DNA of 64,000 bases from Patescibacteria group bacterium (GCA_041660565.1 JBAZWC010000001.1:302481-366480), one strand, 5' to 3'; shown: positions 8,657 to 63,100, numbered from the stretch's first letter. The notes: generated by a model from the letters alone, not told the origin. Made by a program: numbers and translations.

Positions 8657-8725
8657 TGTCATCCCCGCCCCGCTAAGCGGGGCATTGGGACGCTAAGCGT
8701 CCCGACGTTCTATTCGGGGATCCAG
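8657..8725. repeat. double-hairpin palindromic element, family GTCATCCCCGCCCCGCTAAGCGGGGC..GGGACGCTAAGCGTCCC..ATTCGGGGATCCAG
   Basis: Copies at 21101-21231 (with insertion), 41763-41824 (reverse), fragment at 3096-3130. Confidence 0.7.
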
Positions 8726-8739
8726 AAATGAAGGTGGAA

Positions 8740-9201
8740 CTAATTGCTCACAAAATCTGATAAATGGTCAGAAATAGTCAGCGTAATATGCGACAAAACA
8801 TGGTCATGATCAGTGGGGTTTGATTCAGACACCAAATACGCTAATTCGTATAGATCGGCTGCACTTATGATTAGCCACTTGTCATTGTTGGCCAAAAACA
8901 CTAGCAATGCCATCACAGCAATTCTTTTGTTACCGTTTTGGAACGGATGGTTTTTGATTAGTGAATAAAACAAAATCGATGCTTGATCCACTAGATTTGG
9001 ATACAACAGCTTACCACCGAATGATTGTGACGGTTGTCCGAGCGCGGATTCTAACAATGAAACGTCCCGAGTTGAATAATCGGGAATCGGTTGATTGAAA
9101 GTCATTAGATCTCTAGCGAGATTAAAACACAAGTATTCGAAATCTTGCGAGTTTATCCAAGCCGTTTCAGACGGCGGCGAGTTTTTTGAATGTTGATTCA
9201 T
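8740..9201 (-). CDS. doc: Doc (death-on-curing) family toxin, Fic/Doc superfamily
   Basis: Doc motif HPFQNGNKRIAVMA (HxFx[DN]GNKR), 153 aa. Confidence 0.75.
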   Translation of the reverse strand: MNQHSKNSPPSETAWINSQDFEYLCFNLARDLMTFNQPIPDYSTRDVSLLESALGQPSQSFGGKLLYPNLVDQASILFYSLIKNHPFQNGNKRIAVMALLVFLANNDKWLIISAADLYELAYLVSESNPTDHDHVLSHITLTISDHLSDFVSN

Positions 9202-9307
9202 ACTCTTTTAGACCACGCTTAACCGCTCGATCAATAGTTTTGGCCTTTTTAGGGTTAACTTTTTGATAAGCTTTGACGTCAATGCTTGAAAAAACAACTT
9301 TGTTCAT
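9167..9307 (-). CDS. candidate small upstream partner ORF of Doc (possible Phd-like antitoxin; 46 aa, MNKVVFSSIDVKAYQKVNPKKAKTIDRAVKRGLKEYESTFKKLAAV), overlapping doc start by 35 nt in another frame
   Basis: Manually translated; too short for ORF track; typical TA operon geometry; promoter immediately upstream. Confidence 0.35.
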   Translation of the reverse strand: MNKVVFSSIDVKAYQKVNPKKAKTIDRAVKRGLKEYESTFKKLAAV

Positions 9308-9316
9308 AATAGATAT

Positions 9317-9345
9317 ATTCTAATGCAATTAACGATCGGTGTCAA
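9317..9345 (-). promoter_or_regulatory. promoter of doc operon (TTGACA-17-TAGAAT) with -35 embedded in palindrome TGTCAaacTGACA (possible operator)
   Basis: Read on minus strand; start codon ~9 nt after -10. Confidence 0.45.
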
Positions 9346-9418
9346 ACTGACAGGGGATAGAAAATTGATGATGGAGGATAGATTGATCTCGTTCGAGCGA
9401 ATGCGAGAACTATCCGCT

Positions 9419-9490
9419 GTCATTCCGGGCTCGACCCGGAATCTATGTAATTCTTTTATAGACTGGATTCCCGCCTTCGCGGGAATGACA
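9419..9490. repeat. hairpin repeat pair: GTCATTCCGGGCTCGACCCGGAATC + TTTATAGACTGGATTCCCGCCTTCGCGGGAATGACA
   Basis: Same units at 16210-16235, 37295-37372, 41704-41730, 62234-62268. Confidence 0.7.
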
Positions 9491-16142: not shown

Positions 16143-16209
16143 GTCCTTTTATGTGTTTACTAATTCATTTTACACTAGATTAGAGCCAAATTCAACTTAA
16201 ACATCTCTT

Positions 16210-16235
16210 GTCATTCCGGGCTCGACCCGGAATCT
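16210..16235. repeat. hairpin repeat GTCATTCCGGGCTCGACCCGGAATC
   Basis: Identical to 9419-9445. Confidence 0.7.
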
Positions 16236-16249
16236 ATATAAATGAATCA

Positions 16250-16281
16250 CCCGCGCCGGCCATAAGGCTAGCGCGGGTAAC
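16250..16281 (-). terminator. GC-rich hairpin terminator (acccgcgccggccataaggctagcgcgggt)
   Basis: 8-bp GC stem directly downstream of stop at 16292, T/A-rich tail on minus strand. Confidence 0.45.
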
Positions 16282-16291
16282 TTGACAGTGA

Positions 16292-16579
16292 TCACGCGAC
16301 GATTTCGCGCTCGAGGACCTGCATTCCGTTGACGCGTCTACAGGGGTTGCACTTCAAGGCAAAGATCAACCCGCACGACGTACACTGGATTGGCCAGACA
16401 TGCCCACCATATCGAACGGCGTCTCGGGCATCGATCGTGAAGTCACCATGCTCGCAGCAGTAACCATCAGTGGACGAGTCAAGAATAATACGCTTGTCCT
16501 TCACGCCAGACTGGTGCACAACGATCTCTCTCAAAGCCATCACCCCCTTCAATGCGAAGAGTAAGTCTCTCTTGTTCAC
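16292..16579 (-). CDS. small Cys-rich hypothetical protein (CCEHGDF...CTSCG...CNPC) in a GC-rich mini-island
   Basis: 95-aa ORF, GC-rich relative to flanks. Confidence 0.3.
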   Translation of the reverse strand: MNKRDLLFALKGVMALREIVVHQSGVKDKRIILDSSTDGYCCEHGDFTIDARDAVRYGGHVWPIQCTSCGLIFALKCNPCRRVNGMQVLEREIVA

Positions 16580-16903
16580 TACGAACAGCTTTTGGCTAAC
16601 TAGGCGCTGGTGGACATCGCAGAGGTCGAATTCGGCTCAGCGTCCCGCCGGCTTCTGCCGCACTTCTTGCAATACGCGGCCGGGGTGAAGTGATTGGTGC
16701 CGTCGAACCGACACGTCCACGAGGTGGCGTCAACAAAAACGCCTGACCGCCTCGCAACAGAGGTTTCGACCAACCTAGCCGACTCGATTCCAACAAGGTA
16801 TGGTGTGCCCAATCCCGTACTCCTGGAGATTTGATAGCGATATTATAACAGATTATTTGATTTATTAAAAGGGCAACCCTGCAAATCTATCTGACTTACA
16901 GGG

Positions 16904-17098
16904 CTAAACGACATCCAGGTTGTCCCAATCTACAAAGCGCACCATAGCGCTTCTAAGCACAAAGCCACACCAACCGCACCGAATCTTGCTCCCTCCTCGT
17001 TTCTTGCGGACATGACCGCAATGGCAACATACGTGCTGCAAATCTTCTGGTTGGATGAAATCCTCAACCAGAACGACGTCAACGCACAGTTCGTCCAT
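16904..17098 (-). CDS. small zinc-ribbon-like hypothetical protein (VCCHCGH...CGWCG); the N-terminal extension in the ORF track is encoded by a repeat element
   Basis: Start set at MDELC; CxxC...CxxC. Confidence 0.3.
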   Translation of the reverse strand: MDELCVDVVLVEDFIQPEDLQHVCCHCGHVRKKRGGSKIRCGWCGFVLRSAMVRFVDWDNLDVV

Positions 17099-17119
17099 AA
17101 TCCGACCTCCAATAGGCGT

Positions 17120-17277
17120 TGTCATTTCGACCCTGCGAGCGTTGTCGAGCTGTTGGCTTCCTGCCCTCTTAGGGCGTAAGCCCGGAGGGAGAAATCTCAA
17201 AATGAATTTTGAAGAGATTCTTTCTCAGATTTCTCCACCGTGGTCGAGTTGCGACTCTCCCCGAGTCGAAATGACAG
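17120..17277. repeat. MITE-like element, family TGTCATTTCGAC...GGAGAAATCT..AGATTTCTCC...GTCGAAATGACAG (terminal inverted repeats ~13 bp), with a nested extra hairpin
   Basis: Full copies at 22372-22497 and 24029-24150; half copies at 36174-36236 and 40847-40908. Confidence 0.7.
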
Positions 17278-21100: not shown

Positions 21101-21231
21101 TGTCATCCCCGCCCCGCTAAGCGGGGCAAAGGAACGCTTAGCGTCCCGACGTCCGTAATCCGTTTGCAGACGATGGCCTCCGGCTCTACGAGCCGATAGG
21201 CTCGGAGAGAGGACACTATTCGGGGATCCAG
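21101..21231. repeat. double-hairpin element (GTCATCCCCGCCCCGCTAAGCGGGGC...ATTCGGGGATCCAG) with a ~55-bp internal insertion that is itself a hairpin (cctccggctctacgagccgataggctcggagagagg)
   Basis: Compare 8657-8725. Confidence 0.65.
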
Positions 21232-22371: not shown

Positions 22372-22497
22372 TGTCATTTCGACCCCTCGAGCGTTGTCGA
22401 GAGGTTGGAGAAATCTCGAAAAAAAACTGGGAGGGATTCTTTCTTAAGATTTCTCCACCGTGGTCGTGTTGACACACTTCCCGAGTCGAAATGACAG
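22372..22497. repeat. MITE-like element (TGTCATTTCGAC ... GTCGAAATGACAG), full copy
   Basis: Terminal inverted repeats plus internal hairpin GGAGAAATCT/AGATTTCTCC. Confidence 0.75.
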
Positions 22498-23976: not shown

Positions 23977-24028
23977 ATAAAGATATATTACCACTTTTAG
24001 CGCTAGAGATAAAGGATGCTCACGTTAT

Positions 24029-24150
24029 GTCATTTCGACCCTAGGAGATTGTCAAATCGACTATGTCGGAGAAATCTGAGAAAGAATCCCTTCAATTTTT
24101 TAAGGAGATTTCTCCAACCGTTCGTGGAAGCTCACGGGGTCGAAATGACA
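24029..24150. repeat. MITE-like element, full copy, in promoter region of sugar transferase gene
   Basis: Same family as 22372-22497. Confidence 0.75.
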
Positions 24151-32846: not shown

Positions 32847-32887
32847 TTGGCTTAATTGGATTGATTGGACTAATTGGAAAATTTAAA

Positions 32888-33616: not shown

Positions 33617-33640
33617 TATTCAACTTTCCAATTCATCCAA

Positions 33641-34018
33641 TCAATCCAATTTATCCAATTTGATTGAATGTAATTTTTCAATAATTTCCGCGTTTATTTT
33701 TCTCACTTGAGGAGATGTCTGACACCCTTTATTTTGACAACTGGCGCAATCGGTCAACGCAATCGGCCCATCAACGGCGGTGATTATTTGGGCAAAACTG
33801 ATGGTTTTTGGATCAACTGCCACCCAATATCCCCCTCCCACACCTTCTTTACTCGAAATCAATCCAGCCTGACGCAATTTGTTAGCTAATTGTCGCAATA
33901 TTGATAACGGCAAGTTCGCTTCCCCTGCCACCACATTTAAGCTAATTGGATGGCTAGAATTTGATAATTTAGACATCAGCACCAGCGCATAATCTTGTTT
34001 TTTGGAGAGTTTCAACAT
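33641..34018 (-). CDS. Rrf2 family transcriptional regulator (IscR/SufR-like); C-terminus KLDKLD* encoded by ATTGGA repeat
   Basis: Rrf2 wHTH N-terminus MLKLSKKQDYALVLM..., C-terminal Cys triad. Confidence 0.75.
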   Translation of the reverse strand: MLKLSKKQDYALVLMSKLSNSSHPISLNVVAGEANLPLSILRQLANKLRQAGLISSKEGVGGGYWVAVDPKTISFAQIITAVDGPIALTDCASCQNKGCQTSPQVRKINAEIIEKLHSIKLDKLD

Positions 34019-36878: not shown

Positions 36879-36909
36879 TCTTTTTCTAACTCCAATTGGA
36901 TAAATTGGA

Positions 36910-39662: not shown

Positions 39663-40685
39663 TTAAATTATAAGCATGCAATCGCCAAAAGAGAGAAAAC
39701 GATAATTTGATTTTTGGGCGTGATCGTATAAATCAAATAACTTAGTTCGCCCCGTAAGCGCCGAAACCAACATCAGCAGCGTAGATTTTGGCTGATGAAA
39801 GTTAGTCAATAAGCAATCGACCACTTTGAACCGATAGCCCGGGGTAATAAACAAATTTGTCTCCCCAAAATACGGCTGATTTCCGGCTGATTCAAGCGCC
39901 CTGGCCACAGTGGTCCCAACTGCCACCACCCTGCCCCCATTGGCTTTTGTCTGATGTATGAGGTCAATTACCGCCTGAGACACCTCTACCGCCTCTGAGT
40001 GCATTACGTGATCGTTCGTATTTTCCACCCTCACCGGCAAAAACGTGCCCAGCCCAACATGCAAAATCACTTCCGCGGTTTTAACTCCGCCTTGCTTCAG
40101 CTTCTCCAATAACTCCGGTGAAAAGTGCAAACTGGCGGTAGGTGCGGCCACGCTACCCAATATTTTGGCGGTAATGGGTTGATATAACTCGTCTTCAAAA
40201 CCGGCTAGTTGCGGGTTGTGAATGTAAGGTGGCAGAGGCAGGTGACCAAATTCTTCGCAAAACAGGATGAAATCGGGGGATGATAAATTGGTTTGAATAA
40301 TAAACCGCCCCATCCCATCGGTTAATTTATTAATTATTTCACAATGAACATCATCAAATCTTATCTTTTCTCCAATCTCGATGTTTTTCCCCCTAAGTAA
40401 ACACTCAAATTGTCCATCTTTACTCAGTGATTTTAAAATTAACGCTTCGATTTCTTTGCCGTCACTCTGGCGAACTCCCATCAACCGCGCGTGCCTCACT
40501 TTCGAGACGTTAAAGACAAGCAAATCTCCTGAGCGAATAAACGAGGGCAAATCTGCCACCGTTCTATCTAAAATTCGATCTGCTTCTCTGCTATACACCA
40601 GCATTTTTGCTCGCTCACGCGGTCGCACCGGTGCTTGAGCAATTTTATTCTCGGGCAAATTATAATCAAACAGGTCAACTTTCAT
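39663..40685 (-). CDS. queA: S-adenosylmethionine:tRNA ribosyltransferase-isomerase QueA
   Basis: QueA family similarity across length (…LPLPPYI…). Confidence 0.85.
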   Translation of the reverse strand: MKVDLFDYNLPENKIAQAPVRPRERAKMLVYSREADRILDRTVADLPSFIRSGDLLVFNVSKVRHARLMGVRQSDGKEIEALILKSLSKDGQFECLLRGKNIEIGEKIRFDDVHCEIINKLTDGMGRFIIQTNLSSPDFILFCEEFGHLPLPPYIHNPQLAGFEDELYQPITAKILGSVAAPTASLHFSPELLEKLKQGGVKTAEVILHVGLGTFLPVRVENTNDHVMHSEAVEVSQAVIDLIHQTKANGGRVVAVGTTVARALESAGNQPYFGETNLFITPGYRFKVVDCLLTNFHQPKSTLLMLVSALTGRTKLFDLYDHAQKSNYRFLSFGDCMLII

Positions 40686-41395
40686 CTCAAATACACTACC
40701 TGACCTTCTATTAGTTCAATTGGATCTGACGTTGCATTATTTTTCTTGGATACCTGACGCTCAACTCTTTCCGGAATATATTTTATCGGTTTTTGGCTGA
40801 TTTGGTCAAACCACGACTGATCCGTTTCGTCTCTGCCTTTAACCATTGTCATTTCGACCCGTGGAGCTGGCTCGAGCGACCGCGTTGGAGAAATCTGAGA
40901 AAGAATCCTTACAGGTCTTTCTGCGGGTTCGTTCCATTCTCGATTGAGACTGACACTGGAATCAAAGCGCATTAACGGAAAGGTAATCACATTCCCAGCC
41001 ATCATCAAATGCATCACACCAAGATTTACACGTTGATGTAGTTTGGAAGGATACCTAATTGTCATCTTTTCGATCTGTAATTTATCAACCGCAAATCGAA
41101 CTATCTGCCATTTTCTGACTAAATTAATCTCAAATTTGTCCTGATCAAAAATTAGCAATGAATTTAGCCAACGCCAATAATATTGCATAAGATTATAGAG
41201 GTCGAGACACACGAAAGCTAGCGCGATCACAAAAATTATCCCGGCCAAATTCGGGTTTGAAACCAACAGATTGTTCACAACTAGTAATATCAATACAATC
41301 GATGCAATTTTTATAATTGATCTTAGCACGGCCGTTACCAATCCAAGCCAATGTGGATGTAAAGTAATTGTGTTTGAACTAATATTTTTATTCAT
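40682..41395 (-). CDS. hypothetical membrane protein containing an in-frame half-MITE (encodes ...RSLEPAPRVEMTMVKGRDET...)
   Basis: 2 TM N-terminus; repeat at 40847-40908 lies inside ORF. Confidence 0.4.
   Translation of the reverse strand: MNKNISSNTITLHPHWLGLVTAVLRSIIKIASIVLILLVVNNLLVSNPNLAGIIFVIALAFVCLDLYNLMQYYWRWLNSLLIFDQDKFEINLVRKWQIVRFAVDKLQIEKMTIRYPSKLHQRVNLGVMHLMMAGNVITFPLMRFDSSVSLNREWNEPAERPVRILSQISPTRSLEPAPRVEMTMVKGRDETDQSWFDQISQKPIKYIPERVERQVSKKNNATSDPIELIEGQVVYLR
40847..40908. repeat. half copy of MITE-like element inside coding sequence
   Basis: TGTCATTTCGACCC...GGAGAAATCTGAGAAAGAATCC. Confidence 0.6.
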
Positions 41396-41651: not shown

Positions 41652-41703
41652 ACATTATTTATATGTTACCATATTTTTATTTTTTTAGCAATCTATTTTT
41701 CTC

Positions 41704-41824
41704 GTCATTCCCGCGAAGGCGGGAATCCAGCCTATAATAAAATTCATATTTTTCTGGATCCCCGAATATAATGTCGGGACGCTTAGCGCCCCTAAGTCCC
41801 GCTTAGCGGGACGGGGATGACAAA
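41704..41824. repeat. composite repeat: GTCATTCCCGCGAAGGCGGGAATCCAGCCTATAAT + reverse copy of double-hairpin element
   Basis: Matches 9475-9490 and revcomp of 8657-8725. Confidence 0.65.
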
Positions 41825-41903
41825 GGGCATAACGTCGTTGACTCTATTTGAAGTAAGTGGTACAACTAACTTTGGAAACTTAATCGCTTCACGGGGGTGA
41901 GTG

Positions 41904-42221
41904 ATGGAGATTGCGCTGGTTGAGGTGTACCCACCCGATAACTGTCTTGGTCGGGTGGCAGCGTTCAGAATAGATCAAGAATCGGATACGTTGGAGGGAA
42001 TCCAACTGGCTCAAGACTATACTCGCGAACATGGCACAGATAAGGATCGCGGCCGTGGCCTGCAAGGCCCGCAGAACGGATTCGTGGTGATGGTCGCCAG
42101 AGACGAATATGGGCTTTGGGTGCGCATTAACACCGGGGAGATTGACCCGGACAATGTCTCGCAACTCAAAGCGCATGTTTGCAAGGACTTCTCTTATGCT
42201 TTGAACGGCACTAGCCCGTAG
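41904..42221 (+). CDS. hypothetical protein, GC-rich, paralog 1 (…YPPDNC…LAQDYTREHG…QNGF…)
   Basis: RBS GGGGGTGAGTG-ATG; ~30% identity to next gene; opposite-strand ORF judged artifact. Confidence 0.4.
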   Translation: MEIALVEVYPPDNCLGRVAAFRIDQESDTLEGIQLAQDYTREHGTDKDRGRGLQGPQNGFVVMVARDEYGLWVRINTGEIDPDNVSQLKAHVCKDFSYALNGTSP

Positions 42222-42298
42222 GCCAACCGCCTGCGGGTTGAACTTTGCCATAAAAAATGGTATAACTAACACAACGCTAGCACGACGGAGGGAAACAA

Positions 42299-42652
42299 TT
42301 GAGGATCACGGAGGTTGTGCTGTACCCGACGATGCCTTGCCGTCGCCTGGCATCGTTGAAGTTTGGCCCGTTATCCGATCTGACCGAAGCTGTCTGCCTG
42401 GCGCAGATCTTCACCAGAAGGCATGGCAATGGCGACTTCCTGCCAGATGGACAGATAGGCGTCCAGAACGGGTTCCAGATTCTGCCGTACGAGTCAATAA
42501 ATCGTGCCTGCTCAGTGGTCATATACTCAACAAATGACACCTGTAGGAAACAGTGCAAGGCACTTATCAGCGGCCTTCGAACATCAGGCATTGTCAAAAC
42601 GCCAACCGTCCGCAACGAGATCGAGATCAACAACCCACCATACTGGGCTTAA
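42299..42652 (+). CDS. hypothetical protein, GC-rich, paralog 2 (TTG start; …YPTMPC…LAQIFTRRHG…QNGF…)
   Basis: RBS GGAGGG-6nt-TTG; paralogy on plus-strand frame. Confidence 0.4.
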   Translation: MRITEVVLYPTMPCRRLASLKFGPLSDLTEAVCLAQIFTRRHGNGDFLPDGQIGVQNGFQILPYESINRACSVVIYSTNDTCRKQCKALISGLRTSGIVKTPTVRNEIEINNPPYWA

Positions 42653-42710: not shown

Positions 42711-42795
42711 AGTTAGGGGGCTTAGGGAATTTTAGGGAAGTTAGGGGTACCATCGGCCCTCCCAATGCCCCTAATCACCCCACCCCCCCTAACCA
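42711..42795 (+). repeat. TTAGGG/CCCTAA palindromic element E1
   Basis: G-rich arm (ttaggggg cttaggg..ttaggg..ttagggg) then C-rich arm (ccctaa units). Confidence 0.7.
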
Positions 42796-49649: not shown

Positions 49650-49752
49650 GTTAGGGATTTTTAGGGAGTTTAGGGTTGTTAGGGTGGTTCCTTCCCTAAT
49701 TGGTCCCCCGCTCTCCCAATCACTCCAATCTCCCTAATTCCCCCAATTGCCC
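49650..49752 (+). repeat. TTAGGG/CCCTAA palindromic element E3
   Basis: ttagggatttttagggagtttagggttgttagggtggttccttccctaat...ccctaattcccccaa. Confidence 0.75.
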
Positions 49753-49773
49753 TATTTCTGTTATAATGGCACT

Positions 49774-50919
49774 ATGAAAATACTTGTTTGCACCGAAACC
49801 TATCTTCCAACCATTAACGGCGTCGTTAACTCAATTGAACTGTTTAGGCATCAACTTGAAAAAAATGGCCATCAAGTGGATATTGTCGCCCCACACTCTG
49901 CCGCCGAAAGCTTTAAGTCTAGATCTCACGTTTTTCGCCTACCATCGCTACCTCTGATCGGGCAGCCAACGCATCCGGTAGCATGGCCAAGCAAATCCCA
50001 CATCTCAGCCATCATCAGCGAAACCAAACCAGACGTTGTCCACTGTCAAGGTATGTTTGCCTGTGGCTGGCTGGGTCTAAAAGGTGCGCAAAAGGCCAAT
50101 TTGCCACATGTTTTAACTTATCACACTCATCTTGAGGGATATTCGCACTATGCCGGGCCATTATCGTTCTTAGCCAAACCAATTATGCGCTGGTGGACTA
50201 AAAAAATGTGCAACCAATTTGATTTGGTCATCACCCCATCCCCCAGCATGGCTAAGATGCTCAAGAGTTACAAAGTCAAAACCGACATTGTAGCGCTCCC
50301 AACCGGTATTGAGCTAAAGGATTACCGTTTTAATGATAAGAAAAAATTGCGAGCAATGCTTAAATTTAACCCAGATGAGGTTTATATTTTATCCGCCGGG
50401 CGGTTATCTGAAGAAAAAAATGTCAAACAATTATTAATCGATTTTGGGCGCATTCACGTGCGCAATCCTAAAGTCAAATTATTATTAGCAGGTGATGGCC
50501 CCGAGCGCAAAGCGTATGAAACGATAGTAGAAGCTAGAGGATTGCAATCGGTGGTTACGTTTTTGGGCGCACTAAAACACGAAGATCTAATAAATTACTT
50601 TGTTGCCTGTGATATATTTGCCTTTCCATCGCTAACAGACACCCAAGGCATCGTATTAATTGAAGCGATGGCGGCCGGATGTCCCAGCGTGGTGTACGAT
50701 ATGCTAGGCCCGGGCGATATTGTTAAGCACGAGGTAAACGGGTTAAAGGCAAAAGTGGGCACGGATCAGTTTTTCCAACACTTATTTGCGCTTGTTTCAG
50801 ACCAAGATTTAAGAGAAAAAATCAGCATCGGTGGCTTAAGAGACGTTAGAAACTACTCTATCGAAAAAACCGCTGATCAATTGCAACAGATCTACGCTGT
50901 TTTATGTAAGAGGCCATAG
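49774..50919 (+). CDS. glycosyltransferase family 4 (GT-B); leaderless-looking start 5 nt after TATAAT
   Basis: GT1/GT4 C-terminal motif ...GIVLIEAMAAGCPSVV...; start MKILVCTE. Confidence 0.8.
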   Translation: MKILVCTETYLPTINGVVNSIELFRHQLEKNGHQVDIVAPHSAAESFKSRSHVFRLPSLPLIGQPTHPVAWPSKSHISAIISETKPDVVHCQGMFACGWLGLKGAQKANLPHVLTYHTHLEGYSHYAGPLSFLAKPIMRWWTKKMCNQFDLVITPSPSMAKMLKSYKVKTDIVALPTGIELKDYRFNDKKKLRAMLKFNPDEVYILSAGRLSEEKNVKQLLIDFGRIHVRNPKVKLLLAGDGPERKAYETIVEARGLQSVVTFLGALKHEDLINYFVACDIFAFPSLTDTQGIVLIEAMAAGCPSVVYDMLGPGDIVKHEVNGLKAKVGTDQFFQHLFALVSDQDLREKISIGGLRDVRNYSIEKTADQLQQIYAVLCKRP

Positions 50920-50920
50920 G

Positions 50921-51018
50921 GTGTGTTAGGGAGTTTAGGGTTGTTAGGGTGGTTCCTTCCCTAATAGGTTCTACGCTCTCCCAACATCCCTAACGTCCCT
51001 AACTACCCTAACCGTCCT
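50921..51018 (+). repeat. TTAGGG/CCCTAA palindromic element E4 (45-bp core identical to E3)
   Basis: ttagggagtttagggttgttagggtggttccttccctaat shared with E3. Confidence 0.75.
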
Positions 51019-51088
51019 TTTCCTATTGACCACAACGACTACTTATTCCATACTATACTTATAGATCAAATAATGTGGGGCAGGATAA

Positions 51089-51613
51089 ATGGGCGCAACA
51101 TCACCAAGTTGGGACGCAGTAATTGTATTAGTTTACGTTATTGGTGTTGGATATAGTCTAATTTTGCATCGAGAACGAATTGCCGGGCAAATTGCCTCGG
51201 CCTATATTTCATTGGCCGTTACCTCGGTTATCACCACTCCGGTGTATAATTTTTTACATCATAACAGCTTCTTAATGAATCAACTTTGGGTACAAAATGA
51301 CGCCACAACGCAAATGGTTTCGGGTCTGTTGTTTCTTGCTTTAACCATCATTCTTTCCAGCTTTCTGTCGGTGATACCAACCGGGCGAAAATCTGACAGC
51401 CTGTCTATGTTTGAGTCTACTTTGTTTAGCTTTTTGTGGGTAACGTTGTTAATTTCAACAATACTATCATTCCTACCGGTGGACAGATTGGTTTTATTTA
51501 GCAATCAGTCCAAACTCATCACTCTAATTTGGCAATATCACACCGCTTGGTTAATTATCCCGGCGTTTTTGTTAATTTACTCCGGCTTTAGACGCGGGAA
51601 TCTTAATTATTAG
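51089..51613 (+). CDS. hypothetical integral membrane protein
   Basis: ~5 TM helices. Confidence 0.4.
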   Translation: MGATSPSWDAVIVLVYVIGVGYSLILHRERIAGQIASAYISLAVTSVITTPVYNFLHHNSFLMNQLWVQNDATTQMVSGLLFLALTIILSSFLSVIPTGRKSDSLSMFESTLFSFLWVTLLISTILSFLPVDRLVLFSNQSKLITLIWQYHTAWLIIPAFLLIYSGFRRGNLNY

Positions 51614-51714
51614 ACCAATTAGGGAAATTAGGGTCATTTGGGACATTAGGGGTTCTTTCCCTAATAGGTTCTACACTATCCCAATCCCCCTAATCACCCC
51701 AATCTCCCAAATCG
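51612..51714 (+). repeat. TTAGGG/CCCTAA palindromic element E5
   Basis: aattagggaaattagggtcatttgggacattagggg...ccctaat...cccctaatcaccccaatctccc. Confidence 0.75.
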
Positions 51715-51760
51715 TTTTCCTGTTGTAAAAAAACTATTTTTCGTTTATAATATGGTTTAG

Positions 51761-52177: not shown

Positions 52178-52864
52178 ATGAGCCTACAACTAAACGCAGA
52201 TACCCGCAAAATAACTGGCAAAAAAGTTAAGTCTATTAGACGTGACGGTCTAATTCCATTGGTAATGTATGGAAAAGGCTTGCCAACTCATCACCTGCAA
52301 TCCAACGCCAAACTGTTCTCCAAGTTATTTAAAGAAAGCGGTACCTCTAGCTTAGTTGATATTGCTATTGAAGACGCCAAACCAATTAAAGCTTTAATCA
52401 AATCGGTCAGCCTTGATCCGGTATCCAATGAAATTCTTCACGCTGACTTGTTACAGGTAAATATGAAAGAAAAAATCCGCACCGAAATTCCAATTGAATT
52501 TGTGGGTGATTCCAGTGTAGTTACCGAGCAAGATGGTAAATTGGTGTTCAACTTAGACGCTCTTGAGATTGAATGTTTGCCAGACGATTTGGTACCAAAC
52601 TTTGAAGTAAATGTTTCATCTCTAACTGAATTTGATCAAGCAATTCACGTATCTGACATAAAAATCCCAGACGGCATGGAAATTCTAACCGATCCGGAAT
52701 TGGTAATTGTAGTTGCGCAGGCTCCGTTAACCGAAGCTGAACTTGAAGCCGAACTAGCAGAGCCAGAAAAGACCGAGGAAGAGGCAGTCGCTGAAATGGC
52801 CGCCGAAGAACCAGCCGCCGAAGGTGAAGAATTGGGGGAAACCAAAGACGATTTGGGTAATTAG
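52178..52864 (+). CDS. rplY: ribosomal protein L25 / general stress protein Ctc with acidic C-terminal tail
   Basis: L25/Ctc fold pattern (…RRDGLIPLVMYGKG…). Confidence 0.8.
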   Translation: MSLQLNADTRKITGKKVKSIRRDGLIPLVMYGKGLPTHHLQSNAKLFSKLFKESGTSSLVDIAIEDAKPIKALIKSVSLDPVSNEILHADLLQVNMKEKIRTEIPIEFVGDSSVVTEQDGKLVFNLDALEIECLPDDLVPNFEVNVSSLTEFDQAIHVSDIKIPDGMEILTDPELVIVVAQAPLTEAELEAELAEPEKTEEEAVAEMAAEEPAAEGEELGETKDDLGN

Positions 52865-52946
52865 GGGCATTTGGGACATTAGGGTTCTTACCCTAATGAG
52901 TACCCCGCACCCCCAATCACCCTAATCTCCCTAATTCCCCAAACGT
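52855..52946 (+). repeat. TTAGGG/CCCTAA palindromic element E6 (overlaps rplY stop)
   Basis: ttaggggcatttgggacattagggttcttaccctaat...ccctaatctccctaattcccc. Confidence 0.75.
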
Positions 52947-54838: not shown

Positions 54839-54883
54839 ATTATTGTCTCCCAATTAATCCCATCAATCCAATTGAGAATAACT

Positions 54884-56359
54884 ATGAGTAACGCAACAGA
54901 CATTTTGCAGCTAATCAAACTTGAAGAAACGCGCCAACAAGAAGGCATGGAGCTAATTCCGTCTGAAAATTACGCGTCTAAGAACATTCGCGGCGCTTTG
55001 GGCTCGGTTTTAACCAATAAATATTCCGAAGGCTATGCTGGCGCACGTTATTACGGTGGCCAAGAGGTCATTGACCAAATTGAAACCAAGGCCATTGAAC
55101 TTGCTCGGCAACTGTTCAAATATCAATTTGTAAACGTGCAACCATATTCCGGCACACCGGCCAATTTAGCGGTTTATAATGCTTTGTTACAACCGGGCGA
55201 TACTATACTTTCGATGGCGCTTGATATGGGCGGCCACCTAAGCCACGGACACAAACTTAGTTTACCGGGAAAACTTTATAATATTGTTAGTTATGGACTA
55301 CATGAAGAAAATTCGAAAAACGAAATACGAAATACAAAACAAATCCAAAATTCAAAAAAAGAAATTCAAAAAAATGGTACTTTTCGTGCTTCGGATTTCG
55401 AATTTAGTGCTTATGATGCCGGACGCATAGATTACAATCAAGTTGCAGAATTAGCCAAAACCCATAAGCCAAAACTGATTGTTGCTGGTGGTAGTGCGTA
55501 TCCTTATATAATAGATTTTAAGAGATTCAGAGAAATTGCCGACAGCGTTGGTGCTATTTTGATGGTAGATATGGCGCATATTGCCGGACTAGTGGCTGGT
55601 GGCGTGCACCCATCACCCTACCCGTATGCGCACGTTGTAACCTCAACCACCCATAAGACAATGCGCGGGCCAAGAGGTGGATTTATTTTGACCGATGATG
55701 AAGAAATGGCAAAAAAAATTAACCGCGCAGTTTTTCCCGGAATTCAAGGCGGCCCGCACGATAATAACATTGCCGGTATTGCCATTTGCTTTGCCGAAGC
55801 CCTAGATCCAGAGTTTAAGGACTATGCCAAACAAGTTATTCTTAACGCAAAAGCCTTAGCAGATACTGTAGGGGCACCGTCCTCGCTACCGCATCGGATG
55901 ACCGGTGGTCAACATGAATTGCCCGAGGTTCCAGCCATGGCGGGCGGACATATGAGTCCGCCCCTACACCCCCTAAAAAGAAATTCCTTCAATTCAAATT
56001 TCAAATTTCAAATTTCAAATTGTCCTCCCTCTAATTGGAACCCAACCACAGAGAATCACCTACTCTTACTAGACGTCACGCCTTTTGGCCTAGGTGGCTT
56101 ACGCGCCCAAGATCTACTAGACAGCGTTGGCATTACTGTAAATAAACAAGTTTTGCCGGGTGATACCAGAAAACCGGCCGACCCATCGGGTATTCGGCTT
56201 GGATCACCGGCAATGACTACCAGAGGATTCAAAGAAGAACAATTTAACCAAACCGGAAAATGGATTATTGACGTATTATCAAATCCGGAAGACCTTAAGT
56301 TGCACCGCGCTATTCACCAAGAGGTAAAAGCACTGTGTAAAAGGTTCCTGGTGCCTTAG
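54884..56359 (+). CDS. glyA: serine hydroxymethyltransferase with two in-frame insertions derived from repeat elements (~38 aa at 55305-55425; ~43 aa at 55912-56045)
   Basis: SHMT signature incl. PLP-Lys region TSTTHKTMRGPRGG; protein ~75 aa longer than typical; inserts carry GAATTTAGTGCTT repeat and hairpin ggcgggcggacatatgagtccgcccc + (ttcaaat)4. Confidence 0.85.
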   Translation: MSNATDILQLIKLEETRQQEGMELIPSENYASKNIRGALGSVLTNKYSEGYAGARYYGGQEVIDQIETKAIELARQLFKYQFVNVQPYSGTPANLAVYNALLQPGDTILSMALDMGGHLSHGHKLSLPGKLYNIVSYGLHEENSKNEIRNTKQIQNSKKEIQKNGTFRASDFEFSAYDAGRIDYNQVAELAKTHKPKLIVAGGSAYPYIIDFKRFREIADSVGAILMVDMAHIAGLVAGGVHPSPYPYAHVVTSTTHKTMRGPRGGFILTDDEEMAKKINRAVFPGIQGGPHDNNIAGIAICFAEALDPEFKDYAKQVILNAKALADTVGAPSSLPHRMTGGQHELPEVPAMAGGHMSPPLHPLKRNSFNSNFKFQISNCPPSNWNPTTENHLLLLDVTPFGLGGLRAQDLLDSVGITVNKQVLPGDTRKPADPSGIRLGSPAMTTRGFKEEQFNQTGKWIIDVLSNPEDLKLHRAIHQEVKALCKRFLVP

Positions 56360-56458
56360 GGGAATTAGGGACATTAGGGTGATTGGGGGGACAAGGTACC
56401 ATTAGGGTTTTGGTTCCCCCAATGTCCCAAATTTCCCTAATGCCCCCAACCGTCTTTC
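56357..56458 (+). repeat. TTAGGG/CCCTAA palindromic element E7 (perfect G4 motif GGGGaattaGGGacattaGGGtgattGGGGGG); overlaps last codons/stop of 56437..56982
   Basis: Direct reading. Confidence 0.75.
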
Positions 56459-56982
56459 CTCTTTTGGTCTTTTCTGGCATTAAAAAGTTTTTCACTATAA
56501 CCGCCTTCAGTTTTAAACTTTTCTTCTAGGGAAAGAAGCTGTTTATCTAATAAAAAGGTGGTTAAACTTACAAAGGTTACTAACATATTAGCCGCTAGAG
56601 TTGGGTCATTCGGAAAATTAGGTGTATTCAAGGTGTTTTCAGTTACCCAAATTGCCCTAAACTCTCTAAAAACCCTTACATTTTGGTCGTCCTTGCTAAA
56701 CAAAGGCAAATTTCTCTGTCTCAGAAAATCTTGGAAGTCTAACAACAGCTCCTCTTGGGACGCTTTTGCAACGCCCACCAGTTTTATATAACTCTTTAAT
56801 GACTTTTCCATATAACCTTCAGCTATGTTTTGCCTACCGCTGCGCGCCGCTTGCACCATTTGTTCAACCAGCCTACTGTTTTCTCTGCTATTAACAAACT
56901 GTTTGCAAAATTTGACTGTTAAATCATATACAACAGTCGCCATCATAAAGGAAGCTAGTGTTTTATAACCAGGCTGGGCCAT
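56437..56982 (-). CDS. four-helix-bundle protein of the 23S rRNA intervening-sequence protein family
   Basis: Motif SGRQNIAEGYMEKS...ASQEEL matches NIAEG...S.EL signature. Confidence 0.55.
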   Translation of the reverse strand: MAQPGYKTLASFMMATVVYDLTVKFCKQFVNSRENSRLVEQMVQAARSGRQNIAEGYMEKSLKSYIKLVGVAKASQEELLLDFQDFLRQRNLPLFSKDDQNVRVFREFRAIWVTENTLNTPNFPNDPTLAANMLVTFVSLTTFLLDKQLLSLEEKFKTEGGYSEKLFNARKDQKRKDGWGH

Positions 56983-56991: not shown

Positions 56992-57112
56992 CTTAGGGGA
57001 ATTAGTAGGCCAATTGGGGGAATTAGGGTCATTTGGGTCATTGGGGGTTCCACCCCTAATTGGTTTATTGTTCCCCCAATCTCCCTAATCTCCCCAAGCC
57101 CCCTAACCGTTT
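56992..57112 (+). repeat. TTAGGG/CCCTAA palindromic element E8 (abuts stop of giant gene)
   Basis: ttaggggaattagtaggccaattgggggaattagggtcatttgggtcattggggg...ccctaat...ccctaaccg. Confidence 0.75.
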
Positions 57113-57115: not shown

Positions 57116-60100
57116 TTATTTAACTCTAACGGTTCCGCCGCCGTTTACACGCACCGAACCAGAGTTTACCCGCACCCCAGAGTAGTTTGCCGCTTTAGTA
57201 CTAGCGGTGTCATCTACCGGAAAACCGGCCAGACCGGCAGGCCAGGCACCGGCATCAGTGCCAACAATGGCAAGACCCCCTAAGCCCAAACCTAAGCTAC
57301 TTACGCTATTTGAAGGCAAACTGGAATTTGCCGTGGTGTAAAAAACAATTTGTTTTTGCGTAGCTAACGAAATACTGGTTACCCCACTTGCCGTGCCGAC
57401 CCAAAGGGCAGATTGGTTCTTAACCGGTGAGCCGGTGGACCAGGTGGGATCGTCTGAGGCAACGGAAGAGTTGGCACCAAGAGTGCCGTTGTACCCTAAG
57501 CCAGAGGAATCAGCCGCAACTTGCCCGGAGCCTTCATTAAGCTTCCACCAACCGAGAATATTGGCGGATGGATTATCAGTCCTACCAAGCCCGCCGTTAT
57601 AGAGGGCAGCTACTTCGGCACCAGTTATTGCCCTTGAGTAGATACGCACATCATCAATTGATCCATTAATAAATGCAGAAGATCGGCCAATTTCTAAGGT
57701 ACCATTAGCCGTATTCAAAGTTTCAGTTGCAGTCCCGGAAACCATTCCATCCATATAAATTGTTTGGCTGCTTGCGCCACTAACAAGTACAATATGATGC
57801 CAAGCACCATCATCGACACTATTCGTCGTGGTGGCAGAACCGGCATCGGTACCATCAACAGCGCAGTTCATTTTATGTGCAGTCACACCAGCAATTTTAC
57901 ATATTCGGTTGGCAGCCCACCTAAGGGCTCCGCCACTGTTTGTGGTAGTTTTAATCCAGAATGATTCAGTTATCGCCGATTGACCTGGAATTGATCCGGT
58001 GATGACATAGTCAGATCCATCAAAGGTTAAATCTTCCCCCAAATCCCCTGTTTTCATCAACCCCACCGACGTAGCACTGGCCGAGGTGCCACCGATAGCA
58101 GGAGAAACGCGCATGGGATCGGTAGTGGTAACGGTAGCGTCAGCACCCAGAGTACCGTTGTTGGCGTTACCGGAAGAATCGTACACGGTCTGCCCATTTA
58201 TCCCATTAGCCCCACCGTACCGTTCGTCCAGGTGCCAAAGGCCAATGGTGTTTGCATCTGTGGTAAAAGGAACAACAGTGGGAGTAAAATATTTCGTATT
58301 AAGAACTGTCCCCGAATAACGTATTGAATTAGAAATACGCACTTCATCAATTGGACCGTTAAACCTTCCGGCTGAGGGACTACCACTTCCAATATATAGC
58401 GTTTCAGATGAGGTGTATTTGATATTTGCATTCATGTTACAATTGGCACGTAAAGTTCCATCCACAAATATCCTATATTTAAGATTGGATTGATCAATAG
58501 TACCGGCAACATGATGCCATACGCCATCGGCCTGTGAGCTATTAGTAGGACATTCTTCAGTTACCCCATACTGATTCACAAAAAATAAGGTGACTGTGCC
58601 ATTTGAAGACCATCTGTTCATCCGAAAGCCGTACGCACCATAGTTTAATGGGTAAATAGAACTACCAGATGTTGTATTAAACCACATCTCTATAGTAAAA
58701 ACGGTTGGTCTCAAACCGGCATTACCTGCAACCGGAACATAATCATCAGTTCCGTCAAACATAAGCGCGTTACCAAATGACTTGCTGTTGTAGTTTGATG
58801 TTCCGGTGGAGCCAGTGTTAACGTAATGCTCCACAAAACCACTAGCTTGGGTAGAGTGTTCCTGGATGGTTTCAACACCTAAGTTCGTACCAAGAGCAAC
58901 AGTGTTGCTGGTATTATCTGCAAGAGATGTACCGGTGGTGACAGATATGGAATTAATGGTATTGGAACGCAGAGCAGGGGTGGAAGCGGTGGAATAGGTA
59001 ACATCTGCTGTTCCTACTTGGTCGGCGGTGTCTGCATTTACAGCTGTGTAAACATCTAACCCGGCGTGAGTGGTATTAGCACCGTATACCGTGCCAGCAT
59101 TGGTCATAAATACTTTGGTATAGGTGTCTGAGGCGGTTGGGGCATATTTGTACATTGGTGAATCGGTGGGTGCATTGTTGTTAAGACCTATTCCGGTTAA
59201 GTTATTCAAGACATTTAAGTCAGAGGCGGTGGCAAGCGCAACGTATTGTTTTGGAGGAGCTGTGCCTATTACAGTAGGTGAAATATCATTAACGGTAGTG
59301 GAGTTAAGAGCAGTTCCACCAGCTGCGGGATACGCCGAGGCGGCACCACGATTAGCTAGAGTAGATTGATAAATTGAATTGCCAGATGAAGTAAATCGTA
59401 AAGCGGTATCATCATCTAACCGAATATCGGTTAAACCATCAGCGCTGGCAACGTAAATACGACCGTTTAGAGCTTTTACCTTGAGTGTATTATTTGAGCC
59501 GATTAAATTATTACTGGCTTTGGCAAAGCGCGCCCACAGTTTGTTAGTTGATGCGTCTATGATGTCGAGGCCACCGTTGTTGGCCACCAAATTAGTTTTT
59601 GAAGGATAACTACGGAGTTTACCACGGGTTGTACCAAAGGATTCGATAGCCAAGGCGTTGATGCGGTAGGTGTCGTAGGTGGAATAGTTTCCTTGAGGGT
59701 TCCAACGTACGTAGATTCCGGTGGCACCAAGCTGTTGGAGGGAGGAAGAGATCTGTTGTCGGGTGGACCAGGCGTCTAAGGTGGGAGTGGGGCCACCGGT
59801 AGAACCTCGGTACTGGTAGAAGACCGGAGTTTCTTGCTCCACGATGGCGGAGTAAGCGGCTACCGTGGGCTCTGTTGTGGCGTGGAGGAGAGAGTTGTTG
59901 GTGACCCAGTTGGAGGTTGAGTTGAAGCCAAAGTTAGTAAGGGTACCATTGTTGCCTGAGCCGGATGAGTCTACGGCGGTGGTTCCGGCAGCGGTGGTAT
60001 CGTCTAGTTTCCACCAACCAACTAGGCCGGAGTTGGAGACATAGGGAGTGTTGGTGTAAAGAGCTGATGCTTCTGTAGCGCTAATAGATCGACTGTATAT

Positions 60101-63100
60101 TCGGACATCATCAAGCTGACCGTTTAGGTAATTTTGATAATTTGCTGGAACACCTCTCACCCCAAGGGAAAGGTAATTAACCGTATCGACACCAAATGTT
60201 GTGGTCTGAGTTAGCGATCCTTGGTTTAAGGAGCCATCAATATAGATACTAATCGTATTATTGCCAATTACACTTGTATCGGTAGTAATTACGGCTGATA
60301 CCTGGTGCCAGTTACCATCATTCAAGCTCGAACTACTTGAAGATCGCGACATACTATTTCCACTCCCTGTTCCATCTTTTGTACTCACAATTATGATCCC
60401 GGCGTTGATTTTTACCCCCCACCCACCAGTGGAGGCCAAATAGTCTCCTTTAGCCACCAGTGTTTGTAGGGAGGCACTTGCAGTTTTAAACCACGTAGAA
60501 ACGGTAAAAGTCGTGTTTGCAAAGCGATAGGGTGTTTCGTTTGTTACGGCGATATAATCATCCGATCCATCAAACTTCAGACCATACGAATTATAGGAAA
60601 GCGCACTGGATTTTTCGTTGAGGTTGCCATAGTAAAGGTAGTAATCAGCATCAGTACTAGAGGCAGCAATAGGAGCGATGGTCTTGAACTGGGTTTGGTT
60701 GATAGAGTCTACCTTGCCACCGTTGGTGACCCAGGTTCCGGCGTGACCGGTCATATCGCCGTTGTTAGTACCAGTTTGATCTATTACGGTGTTGCCGGTA
60801 CCATCGTCCATATGCCAGAGTCCGGCGGTGTACTGATCTTTGGCAAAAGGCGTAGTTTGCGGGGTAAAGTTACTTCTATACCGTACTCTACTACTGACTC
60901 TCACTTCGTCAATCTGACCGTTCCAAAACCTACTGCCAGAACTCACTTTTTGACGACCGATTATCAAAGCTCCGGTTGAAGCAGCACCTGCCGTAAACAA
61001 ACTGGAACTACCTTGATAAACACCATCAATATATAATTGTAATTTTCCATTCGTGTACGTGCATCCTAAATGCGCCCACGTTCCAATTGATACGGTACTA
61101 CCGTAGGCACTAACACTAGCATCTGAACTATTTCTCATCGCGCAGTAGTACTTTGCTGTGCCGCTTACATCAGCTATACCAAATTGATACGGTGGGTTTG
61201 ACGGTCCTCCACCCTCATCTTTACTGACGGCGGTCTGTAAAGCACCTGATCCGGGTGTCGGAACGGTGTTAGTTTTTAACCAAGCTTCGTATGTTCGATC
61301 TCCAGTTGTGTTAAGGGATGCGTTGTTGGGAATAGTAACGTAGCTACTGGTGCCATTAAAACTAACCGTGTGGCCGTGGGGGAGGAAGCGGGGAACTTCC
61401 TGGGTGGTGGAGATGGCACCGTCGGTGGACCAGGTGGGGGAGTTGGTAAATACACCGTTGTTTTGGTTACCAGACGAATCGGCGGCGATTGTACCGGAGC
61501 CTTCATCGAGGTGCCAGAGGCCAACAGTGTTTGCATCAGAAACAAAAGGAGTTGTGCGAGGTATGAATGTTCCATTGTATCGAGCAATGTTTGAGATTCG
61601 AAATTCATCCTCAATACCACCGAAGCCATAGCTAGTGCCTAGGTTCATCAAGAGTAGGTCTGTTGCTGAGGGCAGATATGCAGAGTAGGTAGCTGAACCA
61701 TCAAGTTGTCCATTTAAGTACATTTTAAGGGTATTGGCCGAACCATTTCCAGAAATTGCTAAGTGATACCAAATGTTAGGGTCGATTATGTGAGATCCCG
61801 ATATATTACGATAACTAGTACCGGTTCCAATGTGACAGAACATTTTCTGTGAATAAAAATTACAGCCAAACCCATCATGAGAGGATACCGGATTTCCTTT
61901 GGAAAATAGGTATGTACCGAAATCGGAATCAGTTTTTTTGAACCACAATTCAAAGGTATAGTTGGCTGAAAGAGAGGCATCAACATTAGCTGGAATTGTA
62001 ATTGATTCGTTTGAGTTACTAGTTGTAGAAACGCCACTGGTGGTAAGTGCGGGTTGGTAGACGATGCGGGTGTCGTTGCCATCTGAACGCATTTGGTTGT
62101 TATCCATCAAAGTACCACGGTTGGTGGTTGACTCCACGCCGTAGCCCGGGGCGAGGATGGAAGCGACGTTATTGGTAAGATTGAGTTTTTGGCGGAATTG
62201 GTAGCCTGGGAGGGCCCAATTGGAAGATGTGTTCATAGACTGGATTCCCGCCTGCGCGGGAATGACACCATCGGTCCAGAGGGGTCCGTTGGTGGTGCCA
62301 TCGGCAGCTGGGGAGTTGGTACTTCCATTCATGAGGGTGCCGGTGTTGCCGTTACCGGAGGAGTCTACAGGGGTAGTGCCGGTAGCATCGTCAAGGTGCC
62401 AGAGTCCTACCGTTGACGCATCGGTGGCAAAGCGGCGGGAGGGGGTGAAGTTGGAGGTATAGCGGGCAGTGTTAGAGATACGGACTTCGTCAATTTGACC
62501 GGTCCAAAAATAATTATCTCCGTTGGGATTACTTGCCAGTTTAGTATTATCAATGCTTATTGCCGATCCTGAACCAGCAGTAAACGCATCTAATGCGCCA
62601 TTTATGTATAGGCTTAAACCAGCGCTATTATACACACCTGCAACATGGTACCATTGATTGACGCTAATAGTGGTGGCGCCTTGTGCAATGGTACCACCTT
62701 GGACAAATCGAAATTTTGTGCCATTTCTATCAAGGTACATTTTCTCTGATCCTGCCAGACTTGAATCAATAATTTTAATATACGCTCCACCTACTGTGCT
62801 AGTACGAACCCAAGCCTCAAAGGTTATCGTACTACTATTCAAAGATAGGCTTTGTGTCGTATAGTCATTACTCCCATCAAACTGCAGGCCACTGGACGGG
62901 ACGGTTTTAACCTCGTAAGACTTTTTGGAGGTGGTGGAGGATTGGGCACCAAGGGTTAAGTTGCCTGCTCCGGTTTTGCCACCTGGGGTATTGAAGCTTG
63001 GGGTATCGGGGTTATCCCCCACAAACCCATCCATAATGGCGTTAGAGCCGGAGACAAAGATAGGACCGTTGGCTGAGCCATCGGCAGCGGGAGAGTTGGA

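Follow-up and report, generated by a model that had tools for sequence, protein, structure and literature searches.

Patescibacteria have very small genomes, are usually thought to be poor in repeats, and depend on DNA uptake. In a stretch of 64,000 nucleotides from a Patescibacteria group bacterium (GCA_041660565.1 JBAZWC010000001.1:302481-366480), referred to here as the window, short hairpin repeats starting with GTCATYCC are dispersed among housekeeping genes (infB, gyrA, gyrB, lepA, murJ, ftsH, thrS, the suf genes, obg, tsaE, tsaB and queA). What kind of element are these repeats, and what might read or move them?

We found that the repeats very probably belong to the superfamily of CGTC/TGTC-tagged repetitive extragenic palindromic (REP) elements, also described as Ssn-related motifs (SRMs). 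This kind of element is already known, and the host phylum is new. Also new are variants with nested hairpins and with G/A-interrupted stems, an insertion into obg that preserves the reading frame, and exact matches across a wide range of phage contigs. All coordinates refer to the whole window, which is also the extent of the census of units in this host.

A common frame of the hairpin units

A first-pass annotation of the window had described a dispersed GTCATYCC family with at least three hairpin types, and this description held. The motif occurs 16 times, compared with 3.05 +/- 1.69 in dinucleotide-preserving shuffles, none of which (0 of 100) reached 16, and all quoted sites were present, with an offset of at most 1 nt. 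A scripted search for stems starting at the AT of GTCAT recovered 12 units that share one frame, i.e., (T/C)GTC, a stem start AT(T/C)CC, a variable interior, GG(A/G)AT, C, and then CAG or TAT, often with nCTATAAAAGA downstream. Of the 16 GTCATYCC sites, 11 or 12 are hairpins of this frame; the four that carry the motif without a hairpin (5069, 22676, 29098 and the 47884 type) look like chance matches. When the census was defined by structure (GTC, at least 6 bp of Watson-Crick stem from the AT onward, and C after the stem), 14 matches were obtained, 11 of them family members, versus 1.13 +/- 0.97 in 100 dinucleotide shuffles.

What stays constant is the unpaired GTC tag, the stem base AT(T/C)CC and the C that follows the stem; the interior of the hairpin differs between units, and at least six stem sequences are present side by side in the window. 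No unit has lost GTC or the post-stem C. The 5' tag of all 12 units is (T/C/G)GTC, mostly TGTC, located directly before the stem and unpaired in predicted folds, and the 3' tails are CCAG (eight units), CTAT (three) and CTGG (one). Single-strand folding z-scores of units and composites range from -3.6 to -5.8, those of types 1-3 lying between -3.6 and -5.0. Types 1 and 2 share an 8-bp stem, with a loop of 5 nt in type 1 and its variants and of 4 nt in type 2, and in type 3 an outer stem of 6-7 bp encloses two hairpins.

Many units are joined tail-to-tail, with the tags outward, into composites of 66-145 nt whose partners are usually different hairpin types, in agreement with the modular combination proposed by the first-pass annotation. 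There are five such composites in the main family and three in a sister family described below. Target-site duplications, for which the annotation had recommended a check, were found at none of these eight composites. Almost all units lie in short spacers between co-directional genes, and both orientations occur. No T-runs follow the hairpins, and an intrinsic-terminator scan called none of the units, although canonical terminators exist nearby. A search of Rfam with gathering and E-value thresholds gave no match on the repeats.

Relationship to CGTC-tagged REPs and Ssn-related motifs

CGTC-tagged REPs were defined in 2013 by Di Nocera, De Gregorio and Rocco as elements with a tag that is often TGTC, a stem of 8-9 bp starting with AT, and a CCA tail (PMC3733652). 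In the same definition, TGTC or CCTC is allowed as the tag, the first stem pairs are A-T and T-A, and the loop has 4 nt in family 1 and 5 nt in families 2-4. Dimers are frequent, opposite in orientation and often heterodimers; intragenic dimers encode 20-30 aa; and the sequences are unusually alike across taxa. The dRS3 element of Neisseria corresponds to CGTC-1, as does Rickettsia RPE-6, and RPE-4 corresponds to CGTC-4 (PMC3733652). Types 1 and 2 of the window agree with this description in tag, stem, loop, tail, dimer formation and intragenic occurrence.

A partner protein has been characterized for the neisserial member. SsnA, a 94-aa single-domain GIY-YIG protein (cd10448), binds one strand of the 28-nt NTS, CGTCATTCCCGCGMAVGCGGGAATCYRG, and does so only when the DNA is single-stranded (Chenal et al. 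2025, PMC11893778). It cleaves a few nucleotides upstream, and does not bind RNA. Cleavage is governed by the three bases before the palindrome and binding by the C after it, and SsnA is inactive when the stem sequence is altered, even if the structure is kept (PMC11893778). Motifs occur within 5 kb of 71% of ssn homologues, and 81% of the genomes with more than 200 motifs have ssn (PMC11893778). We searched the window with the SRM pattern HGTCWYN(0-2)YYVSBRHN(0-5)WNVSBRGN(0-2)RNCYNB, which matched four units (37295+, 41703+, 9490- and 62267-) versus 0.16 +/- 0.37 in 100 shuffles. An exact copy of the NTS consensus lies at 41703, and in the units at 9490(-) and 62267(-) a single base, the first, is different. 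The likeness to dRS3 had suggested a Neisseria origin of the window, which was rejected: there is only one copy of the Neisseria DNA uptake sequence in 64 kb, the GC content is about 44%, and GyrB is 100% identical to a protein from a Patescibacteria metagenome-assembled genome, to which Obg is likewise identical in sequence.

Neither of the two studies mentions bacteria of the candidate phyla radiation (CPR), or phages (PMC3733652, PMC11893778), and a search of one literature library found nothing on REPs in Patescibacteria.

Distribution in genomes and phages

The near-identity of CGTC REPs in distant taxa is reproduced by the units of the window. Species-representative genomes of more than 12 phyla contain the exact type 1 25-mer, in at least 120 stretches. 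Among the matches listed, the hosts are Alpha-, Beta-, Gamma- and Deltaproteobacteria, Bacteroidota, Nitrospirota, Acidobacteriota, Chloroflexota, Spirochaetes, Fibrobacter, Kiritimatiellia, Omnitrophica, Firmicutes, Campylobacterota, SAR324 and Binatota, and 15 of the listed stretches come from CPR bacteria (Saccharibacteria, Nomurabacteria, Berkelbacteria, Collierbacteria, Kazan and unclassified Patescibacteria). The CPR loci repeat the mixed tail-to-tail dimers; one of them (L269) has 9 units in 8 kb.

Phages carry the units as well. The exact type 1 25-mer was found in six phage stretches, with up to 10 copies in one 16-kb contig. For the type 2 sequence GTCATTCCCGCNNNNGCGGGAATC, IMG/VR gave at least 175 matches in at least 120 stretches, at GC contents from 32 to 72%, and its context among the listed matches is nearly always GTCATTCCCGCG(A/C)AGGCGGGAATCCAG. 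With units present in hundreds of unrelated genomes and phage contigs, the elements are neither confined to this locus nor explained as artefacts, the two outcomes that the first-pass annotation had named as speaking against a dispersed family. In several IMG/VR stretches (L016, L043, L078, L082, L086 and L126/L129), type 1 or type 2 hairpins are repeated in intergenic spacers, and phage hairpins are often located 10-25 nt upstream of a ribosome-binding site.

For type 3, a scan of species-representative genome contigs gave no match, and a metagenome scan returned 56 stretches (GC 42-61%), all of which represent another repeat family in other organisms. This other family (L130-L185, JGI metagenomes Ga0315275-Ga0315291) is about 130 nt long and is present in many copies in one sediment-like study. 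Its element has conserved flanks around a dimer joined tail-to-tail, GTCATCCCCGTCCCGCTAAGCGGGAGGGATCCAG-CATAAAAC-CTGGACTCC...GGAGTGAC; only its first hairpin is common with type 3 of the window, and the element is absent from 185,579 species-representative genomes.

Units in the window

The type 1 sequence at 9419 and 16210 is GTCATTCCGGGCTCGACCCGGAATC, and a C variant, GTCATCCCGGGCTCGACCCGGGATC, is found at 37296. The copy at 16209-16237 (+) is a single unit upstream of gyrB. At 9418-9490, between infB and a Fic cassette, type 1 (+, 9419-9442) is joined tail-to-tail with type 2 (-, 9467-9489). The composite at 37295-37372, between tsaE and tsaB, consists of two type 1 variants in tail-to-tail arrangement, of which the minus-strand one (37348-37371) had escaped the first-pass annotation; the TsaE open reading frame (ORF) takes its final 11 codons and its stop from this composite.

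Type 2 extends over 9462-9490(-), 41703-41730(+) and 62238-62267(-). The exact NTS copy is the plus-strand half of a composite at 41703-41822, with type 3 on the minus strand, that adjoins two tRNA-Met genes. The single unit at 62234-62267 (-) lies in-frame inside a 2284-aa laminin-G repeat ORF, which reads it as VIPAQAGIQSM.

Type 3 extends over 8658-8725(+), 21102-21231(+) and 41754-41821(-). The unit at 8657-8727 (+), at the 3' end of the Fic cassette, has the outer stem ATCCCC/GGGGAT, two hairpins of 7-9 bp inside and a CCAG tail, and that at 21101-21231 (+) carries an internal structured insertion of about 60 nt. A type 3 fragment comprising the 3' half (3091-3134, +), ending in GTCCCCGACATTATATTCGGGGATCCAGAAAT, forms a tail-to-tail composite with a variant unit at 3138-3232 (-), in which GTCATTCCCG and GAATCTGG enclose nested hairpins, followed by an extra hairpin and a CAGTCTATGAAAAAG tail. 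The first-pass annotation had listed this variant, at 3148, as type 2; the unit exists, and it is a longer form with nested hairpins rather than plain type 2. The annotation had also noted the anchor next to ATTGGA repeats at 32833, where we indeed found a truncated 5' stub of 11 nt, GTCATTCCGGG (32832-32842, +), that abuts an array of AATTGGAnn with a 9-bp period.

Insertion into obg and hairpins around a Fic cassette

Two further findings were absent from the first-pass annotation, i.e., the sister family and a 66-nt tail-to-tail dimer in obg (7126-7191, -). The dimer is composed of an intact type 1 variant and a decayed type 2 unit. It amounts to exactly 22 codons without a stop on the coding strand, and encodes VIPDLIRNPDIKDIESRLHVND. 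Solved Obg structures align on either side of the 22-aa segment and skip it, and the native Obg motif '...EILTEGQ' is kept just downstream. The segment is missing in 30 of the 30 nearest Obg homologues from a collection of 5.8 billion proteins, which have 317-340 aa versus 348 aa here. The nearest relative available (L001, GyrB 80% identical), which is syntenic for gyrB-gyrA-infB-CHAP-obg-rpoB and in which no member of the hairpin family was found, has an Obg orthologue that is 21 residues shorter, with a gap at the insertion point. In a search for presence/absence polymorphism of the insert among near-identical proteins, the database contained no Obg closer than 59% identity.

Between infB and the CHAP gene lies an inserted Fic/DOC toxin cassette (8634-9352, -; Fic gene 8740-9201). 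It is bracketed by 13-nt direct repeats, TGTCAAACTGACA, at 8634-8646 and 9340-9352 (0.04 expected), and each copy supplies a TTGACA -35 box on the minus strand. Hairpin units bracket the cassette, with type 3 at its 3' end and the type 1/type 2 composite upstream. The relative L001 has no Fic cassette, and its empty site carries one related copy of TGTCAAACTGACA.

A sister family with interrupted stems

Eight units of the window follow the frame of the main family with a different stem, TGTCATTTCGAC...GGAGAAATCT, also written GTCATTTCGAC...GGAGAAATCT, that is interrupted by G/A mismatches. Three composites were identified: one at 17120-17276, in which two TGTCATTTCGAC...GGAGAAATCT units are joined with an internal insertion; one at 22372-22496, in which TGTCATTTCGACCC/GGGTCGAAATGACA form a 13-14 bp outer stem around an inner GGAGAAATCT stem; and one at 24028-24150. 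All three fold with a 13-14 bp outer stem; sister units taken singly do not fold (z-scores from -0.1 to -0.6). Single units are located at 36174-36244 (+) and at 40847-40920 (+), the latter antisense and stop-free inside ORF 40682-41395, whose status as a gene is uncertain because it has no family match.

The frame GTC-ATTTC-GA-[hairpin]-GA-GAAAT-CT also occurs as solo units in 13 phage stretches with GC contents of 41-68%. Type 3 and the sister family keep the common frame and exceed the stem and loop limits published for CGTC REPs; therefore, we treat both as variants of this kind of element.

Search for a partner enzyme and a possible mechanism

The first-pass annotation had proposed that the repeats are mobilized through recognition of the GTCATYCC end, possibly by an IS200/IS605 TnpA(REP) transposase. 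One part of this proposal stands, in that the end is conserved (GTC, AT(T/C)CC and the post-stem C) and is read by a partner protein in the homologous NTS. The enzyme class does not, since TnpA(REP) goes with GTAG tags, and CGTC/TGTC REPs lack a tyrosine transposase (PMC3733652). As the annotation had stated, the window has no transposase: among its ORFs of at least 100 aa, nine of which had no family match, neither a transposase nor a recombinase, HUH/Y1 or GIY-YIG domain was detected, and no prophage was found in the window.

For the search of Ssn, we built a hidden Markov model (HMM) from six motif-flanked Ssn proteins. The model recovered motif-flanked ssn genes in L104, L044, L005, L221, L247, L260 and L282. 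In L104, ssn at 7823-8134 is flanked by motifs at 7785-7808 and 8141-8164, i.e., the published hairpin-ssn-hairpin arrangement, and ssn and motif are likewise associated in L260, from Fibrobacter. An abundant CPR clade of 84-aa GIY-YIG proteins was tried as a candidate for the hairpin-flanked nuclease and rejected, as its members are not flanked by these hairpins; this clade is very common in CPR bacteria, mostly on contigs below 2 kb.

By analogy with the Neisseria, Wolbachia and N. elongata systems, the hairpin would extrude in single-stranded DNA during replication, DNA uptake or phage replication, and a small single-domain GIY-YIG nuclease (Ssn) would bind the stem and the 3' C and nick slightly 5' of the GTC tag, by a few nucleotides. 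Recognition of the tag, the stem base and the 3' C by Ssn would account for their constancy and for the freedom of the interior. The units would then be REP-like passengers that mark or modulate the processing of single-stranded DNA, and they may stem from seeding by a hairpin-ssn-hairpin cassette.

Several observations weigh against the assignment combined with this proposal. Only 4 of the approximately 12 units agree with the SRM pattern, and type 3 and the sister family lie outside the published stem and loop limits. Searches for an Ssn/GIY-YIG gene in the 64 kb by regular expression, tblastn (best E 0.46) and HMM were all negative, so that ssn is absent here, versus the 71% of ssn genes reported with motifs within 5 kb. 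There was no bona fide Ssn among the 15 CPR loci, where the only small GIY-YIG protein (L254, 85-89 aa, E 3e-10) belongs to a different clade. Action of one enzyme on all hairpin types is unlikely, because at least six stem sequences coexist and SsnA is stem-specific. A selfish origin of hairpin-ssn-hairpin units, or their mobilization by Ssn, has been suggested and never demonstrated (PMC11893778). Superfamily membership and the Ssn mechanism taken as one statement are reasonably probable, and a resident Ssn as the working partner in the host genome can be put forward only tentatively.

A quite unlikely alternative is that this reduced CPR genome has neither Ssn nor a transposase of its own and yet carries tagged hairpins at a density of about one in 3 kb, as a result of ongoing seeding of modules across phyla. 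Identical 25-27-mers would then arrive with taken-up single-stranded DNA or phages and be copied by nick-primed or template-switch synthesis, and insertions that land in-frame in essential genes, obg among them, would be tolerated. The elements would be enzyme-independent or trans-kingdom-serviced mobile units rather than the footprint of a domesticated nuclease. In a variant of this scenario, the 84-aa CPR GIY-YIG clade, which occurs beside arrays with a 9-bp period, could be the functional counterpart in CPR bacteria.

The assignment to the SRM superfamily extends this group to Patescibacteria and places its elements in three settings, namely in-frame in an essential GTPase, around a toxin cassette, and in a process of diversification by nested hairpins. 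If the complete genome has Ssn, CPR bacteria would offer a compact natural system in which to study what Ssn does in hosts other than Neisseria. Without Ssn in the genome, the question about the spread of CGTC hairpins, open since 2013, would be sharpened. The units also call for caution in annotation, since they yield recurrent spurious peptides such as VIPAKAGIQ.

Alternative explanations

Since the DNA comes from a metagenome-assembled genome, an assembly artefact or chimera has to be considered. It has next to no credibility, as units of 25-145 nt are shorter than reads, the surrounding genes are intact and syntenic, the obg frame is preserved, and the same units occur in isolate genomes and in hundreds of independent assemblies. 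A role at the RNA level, for example as stabilizers of transcript ends, processing sites or attenuators, would fit any origin of the repeats and is consistent with the location of nearly all units in short co-directional spacers, with the phage type 2 hairpin often lying just upstream of a ribosome-binding site, and with proposals that REPs are RNA elements. We nevertheless consider it unlikely: neither T-runs nor terminator calls accompany the units, both orientations and intragenic copies occur, there is no Rfam match, SsnA does not bind RNA, and RNA stability leaves a strictly conserved unpaired tag and tail unexplained.

The remaining alternatives concern mobility. The resemblance of inverted hairpin dimers without target duplications to REPINs might point to a tyrosine transposase of the REP-associated kind (RAYT, IS200/IS605 TnpA-like) whose gene lies in the part of the genome beyond the 64 kb seen here, and single-strand transposition is compatible with hairpins. 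This is highly unlikely in view of the (T/C)GTC tag, which is not GTAG, the survey of CGTC-positive species in which no RAYT or transposase was flanked by CGTC units (PMC3733652), the lack of HUH/Y1 domains in window ORFs of at least 100 aa, and dimer arms that are usually different hairpin types and not copies of one REP. The TGTCATTTCGAC family in particular could instead be viewed as miniature inverted-repeat transposable elements (MITEs), i.e., deletion derivatives, moved in trans, of an insertion sequence of the DDE type whose terminal inverted repeats read TGTCAT... Its composites of 120-157 nt indeed fold as long hairpins with 13-14 bp terminal inverted repeats, and single sister units do not fold alone (z -0.1 to -0.6). 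The missing duplications at the eight composites and the missing transposase in the window make this possibility highly doubtful as well, and solo units of the same frame in 13 phage stretches suit a tagged-hairpin unit better than half a MITE. It is very improbable, finally, that the units are landing sites of a site-specific recombinase of the IS110/Piv type, as used by filamentous prophages of Neisseria at dRS3. Although dRS3 is a known phage recombinase target and units flank the Fic cassette, the window has neither a recombinase nor a prophage, the cassette ends in its own 13-nt direct repeats and not in cut hairpins, and a recombinase would explain the use of the units rather than their origin or spread. 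None of these alternatives accounts for the tag, the missing duplications, the missing enzymes and the cross-phylum identity as well as does membership in the SRM superfamily.

Other features of the window

Tandem arrays of AATTGGAnn or TTAGGGnnn with a 9-bp period are located at gene boundaries; they are not explained by the hairpin family and have no Rfam match. These arrays are found at 32839-32884, 33624-33664, 34065-34115, 36891-36933, 42713-42794, 49652-49757, 50917-51022, 51609-51715, 52852-52945, 56347-56460 and 57005-57109. A TTAGGGnnn array followed within about 20 nt by inverted nnnCCCTAA generates long hairpins directly after stop codons. In other genomes, 9-mer arrays occur beside genes for 84-85-aa single-domain GIY-YIG proteins and a '23S rRNA intervening sequence' four-helix-bundle gene. 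Their types include ATAGGACnn in L254 (3313-4307) and ACAGGATnn followed by CCTGTnnnn in L309, and in L309, L311 and L314 the arrays lie upstream of the GIY-YIG gene. The four-helix-bundle gene of the window (56437-56982) has inverted 9-mer arrays on both sides. The arrays and the GIY-YIG and four-helix-bundle genes may constitute a separate mobile module.

The serine hydroxymethyltransferase ORF (54872-56359) encodes 495 aa, about 80 aa above the usual length, is matched by its Pfam model in three pieces, and contains in-frame A-rich 7-nt tandem repeats (55309-55374 and 55993-56021), which suggests low-complexity insertions in a core enzyme. Three GC-rich stretches (3240-3940, 16240-17100 and 41830-42650) have no convincing gene, with ORFs overlapping on both strands and no Pfam or Rfam match, and could be divergent structured RNAs or decayed genes. 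Gene orientation changes from minus to plus near a tRNA-Lys gene (49.6 kb), and the cumulative GC skew reaches its minimum at about 57 kb; these features may mark a replication origin region.

Comparison with known systems

GTAG REPs, REPINs and BIMEs resemble the units of the window as short tagged hairpins that form inverted dimers in spacers and are presumed to act in single-stranded DNA. They differ in having a GTAG tag, where the tag is YGTC here, as well as a dedicated tyrosine transposase and sequences that are genome-specific and not shared across phyla.

Rickettsia RPE-4 and RPE-6 are tagged hairpins of one superfamily with the units described here, and they are likewise found in-frame in conserved protein genes. 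In contrast to Rickettsia, the host of the window is not known to live as an obligate intracellular bacterium, and only two or three intragenic cases were seen in the window.

The dRS3/NTS elements of Neisseria are distinguished by the presence of ssn and of large mosaic arrays (NIMEs), both of which the window lacks, whereas the window has many stem types. Intragenic units make up 3 of approximately 20 in the window versus 2% in N. meningitidis. The two systems have in common the exact NTS, the conserved GTC and post-stem C, and units that flank an accessory cassette in the manner of a hairpin-gene-hairpin arrangement.

The CGTC-1 and CGTC-2 REPs differ from the units of the window in their hosts, Patescibacteria being absent from the five phyla listed (PMC3733652). 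Further differences are the nested hairpins of type 3 (once with the 60-nt insertion), the ATTTC-GA...GA-GAAAT stem of the sister family, and the geometry of the dimers, whose tags point outward and whose tails point inward in the window. In other respects the likeness is extensive: an unpaired tag, an 8-bp stem starting with AT, a loop of 4 or 5 nt, a CCA-type tail, no neighboring transposase, dimers and heterodimers in opposite orientation, intragenic dimers that are read in-frame, and near-identity of sequence across distant taxa.

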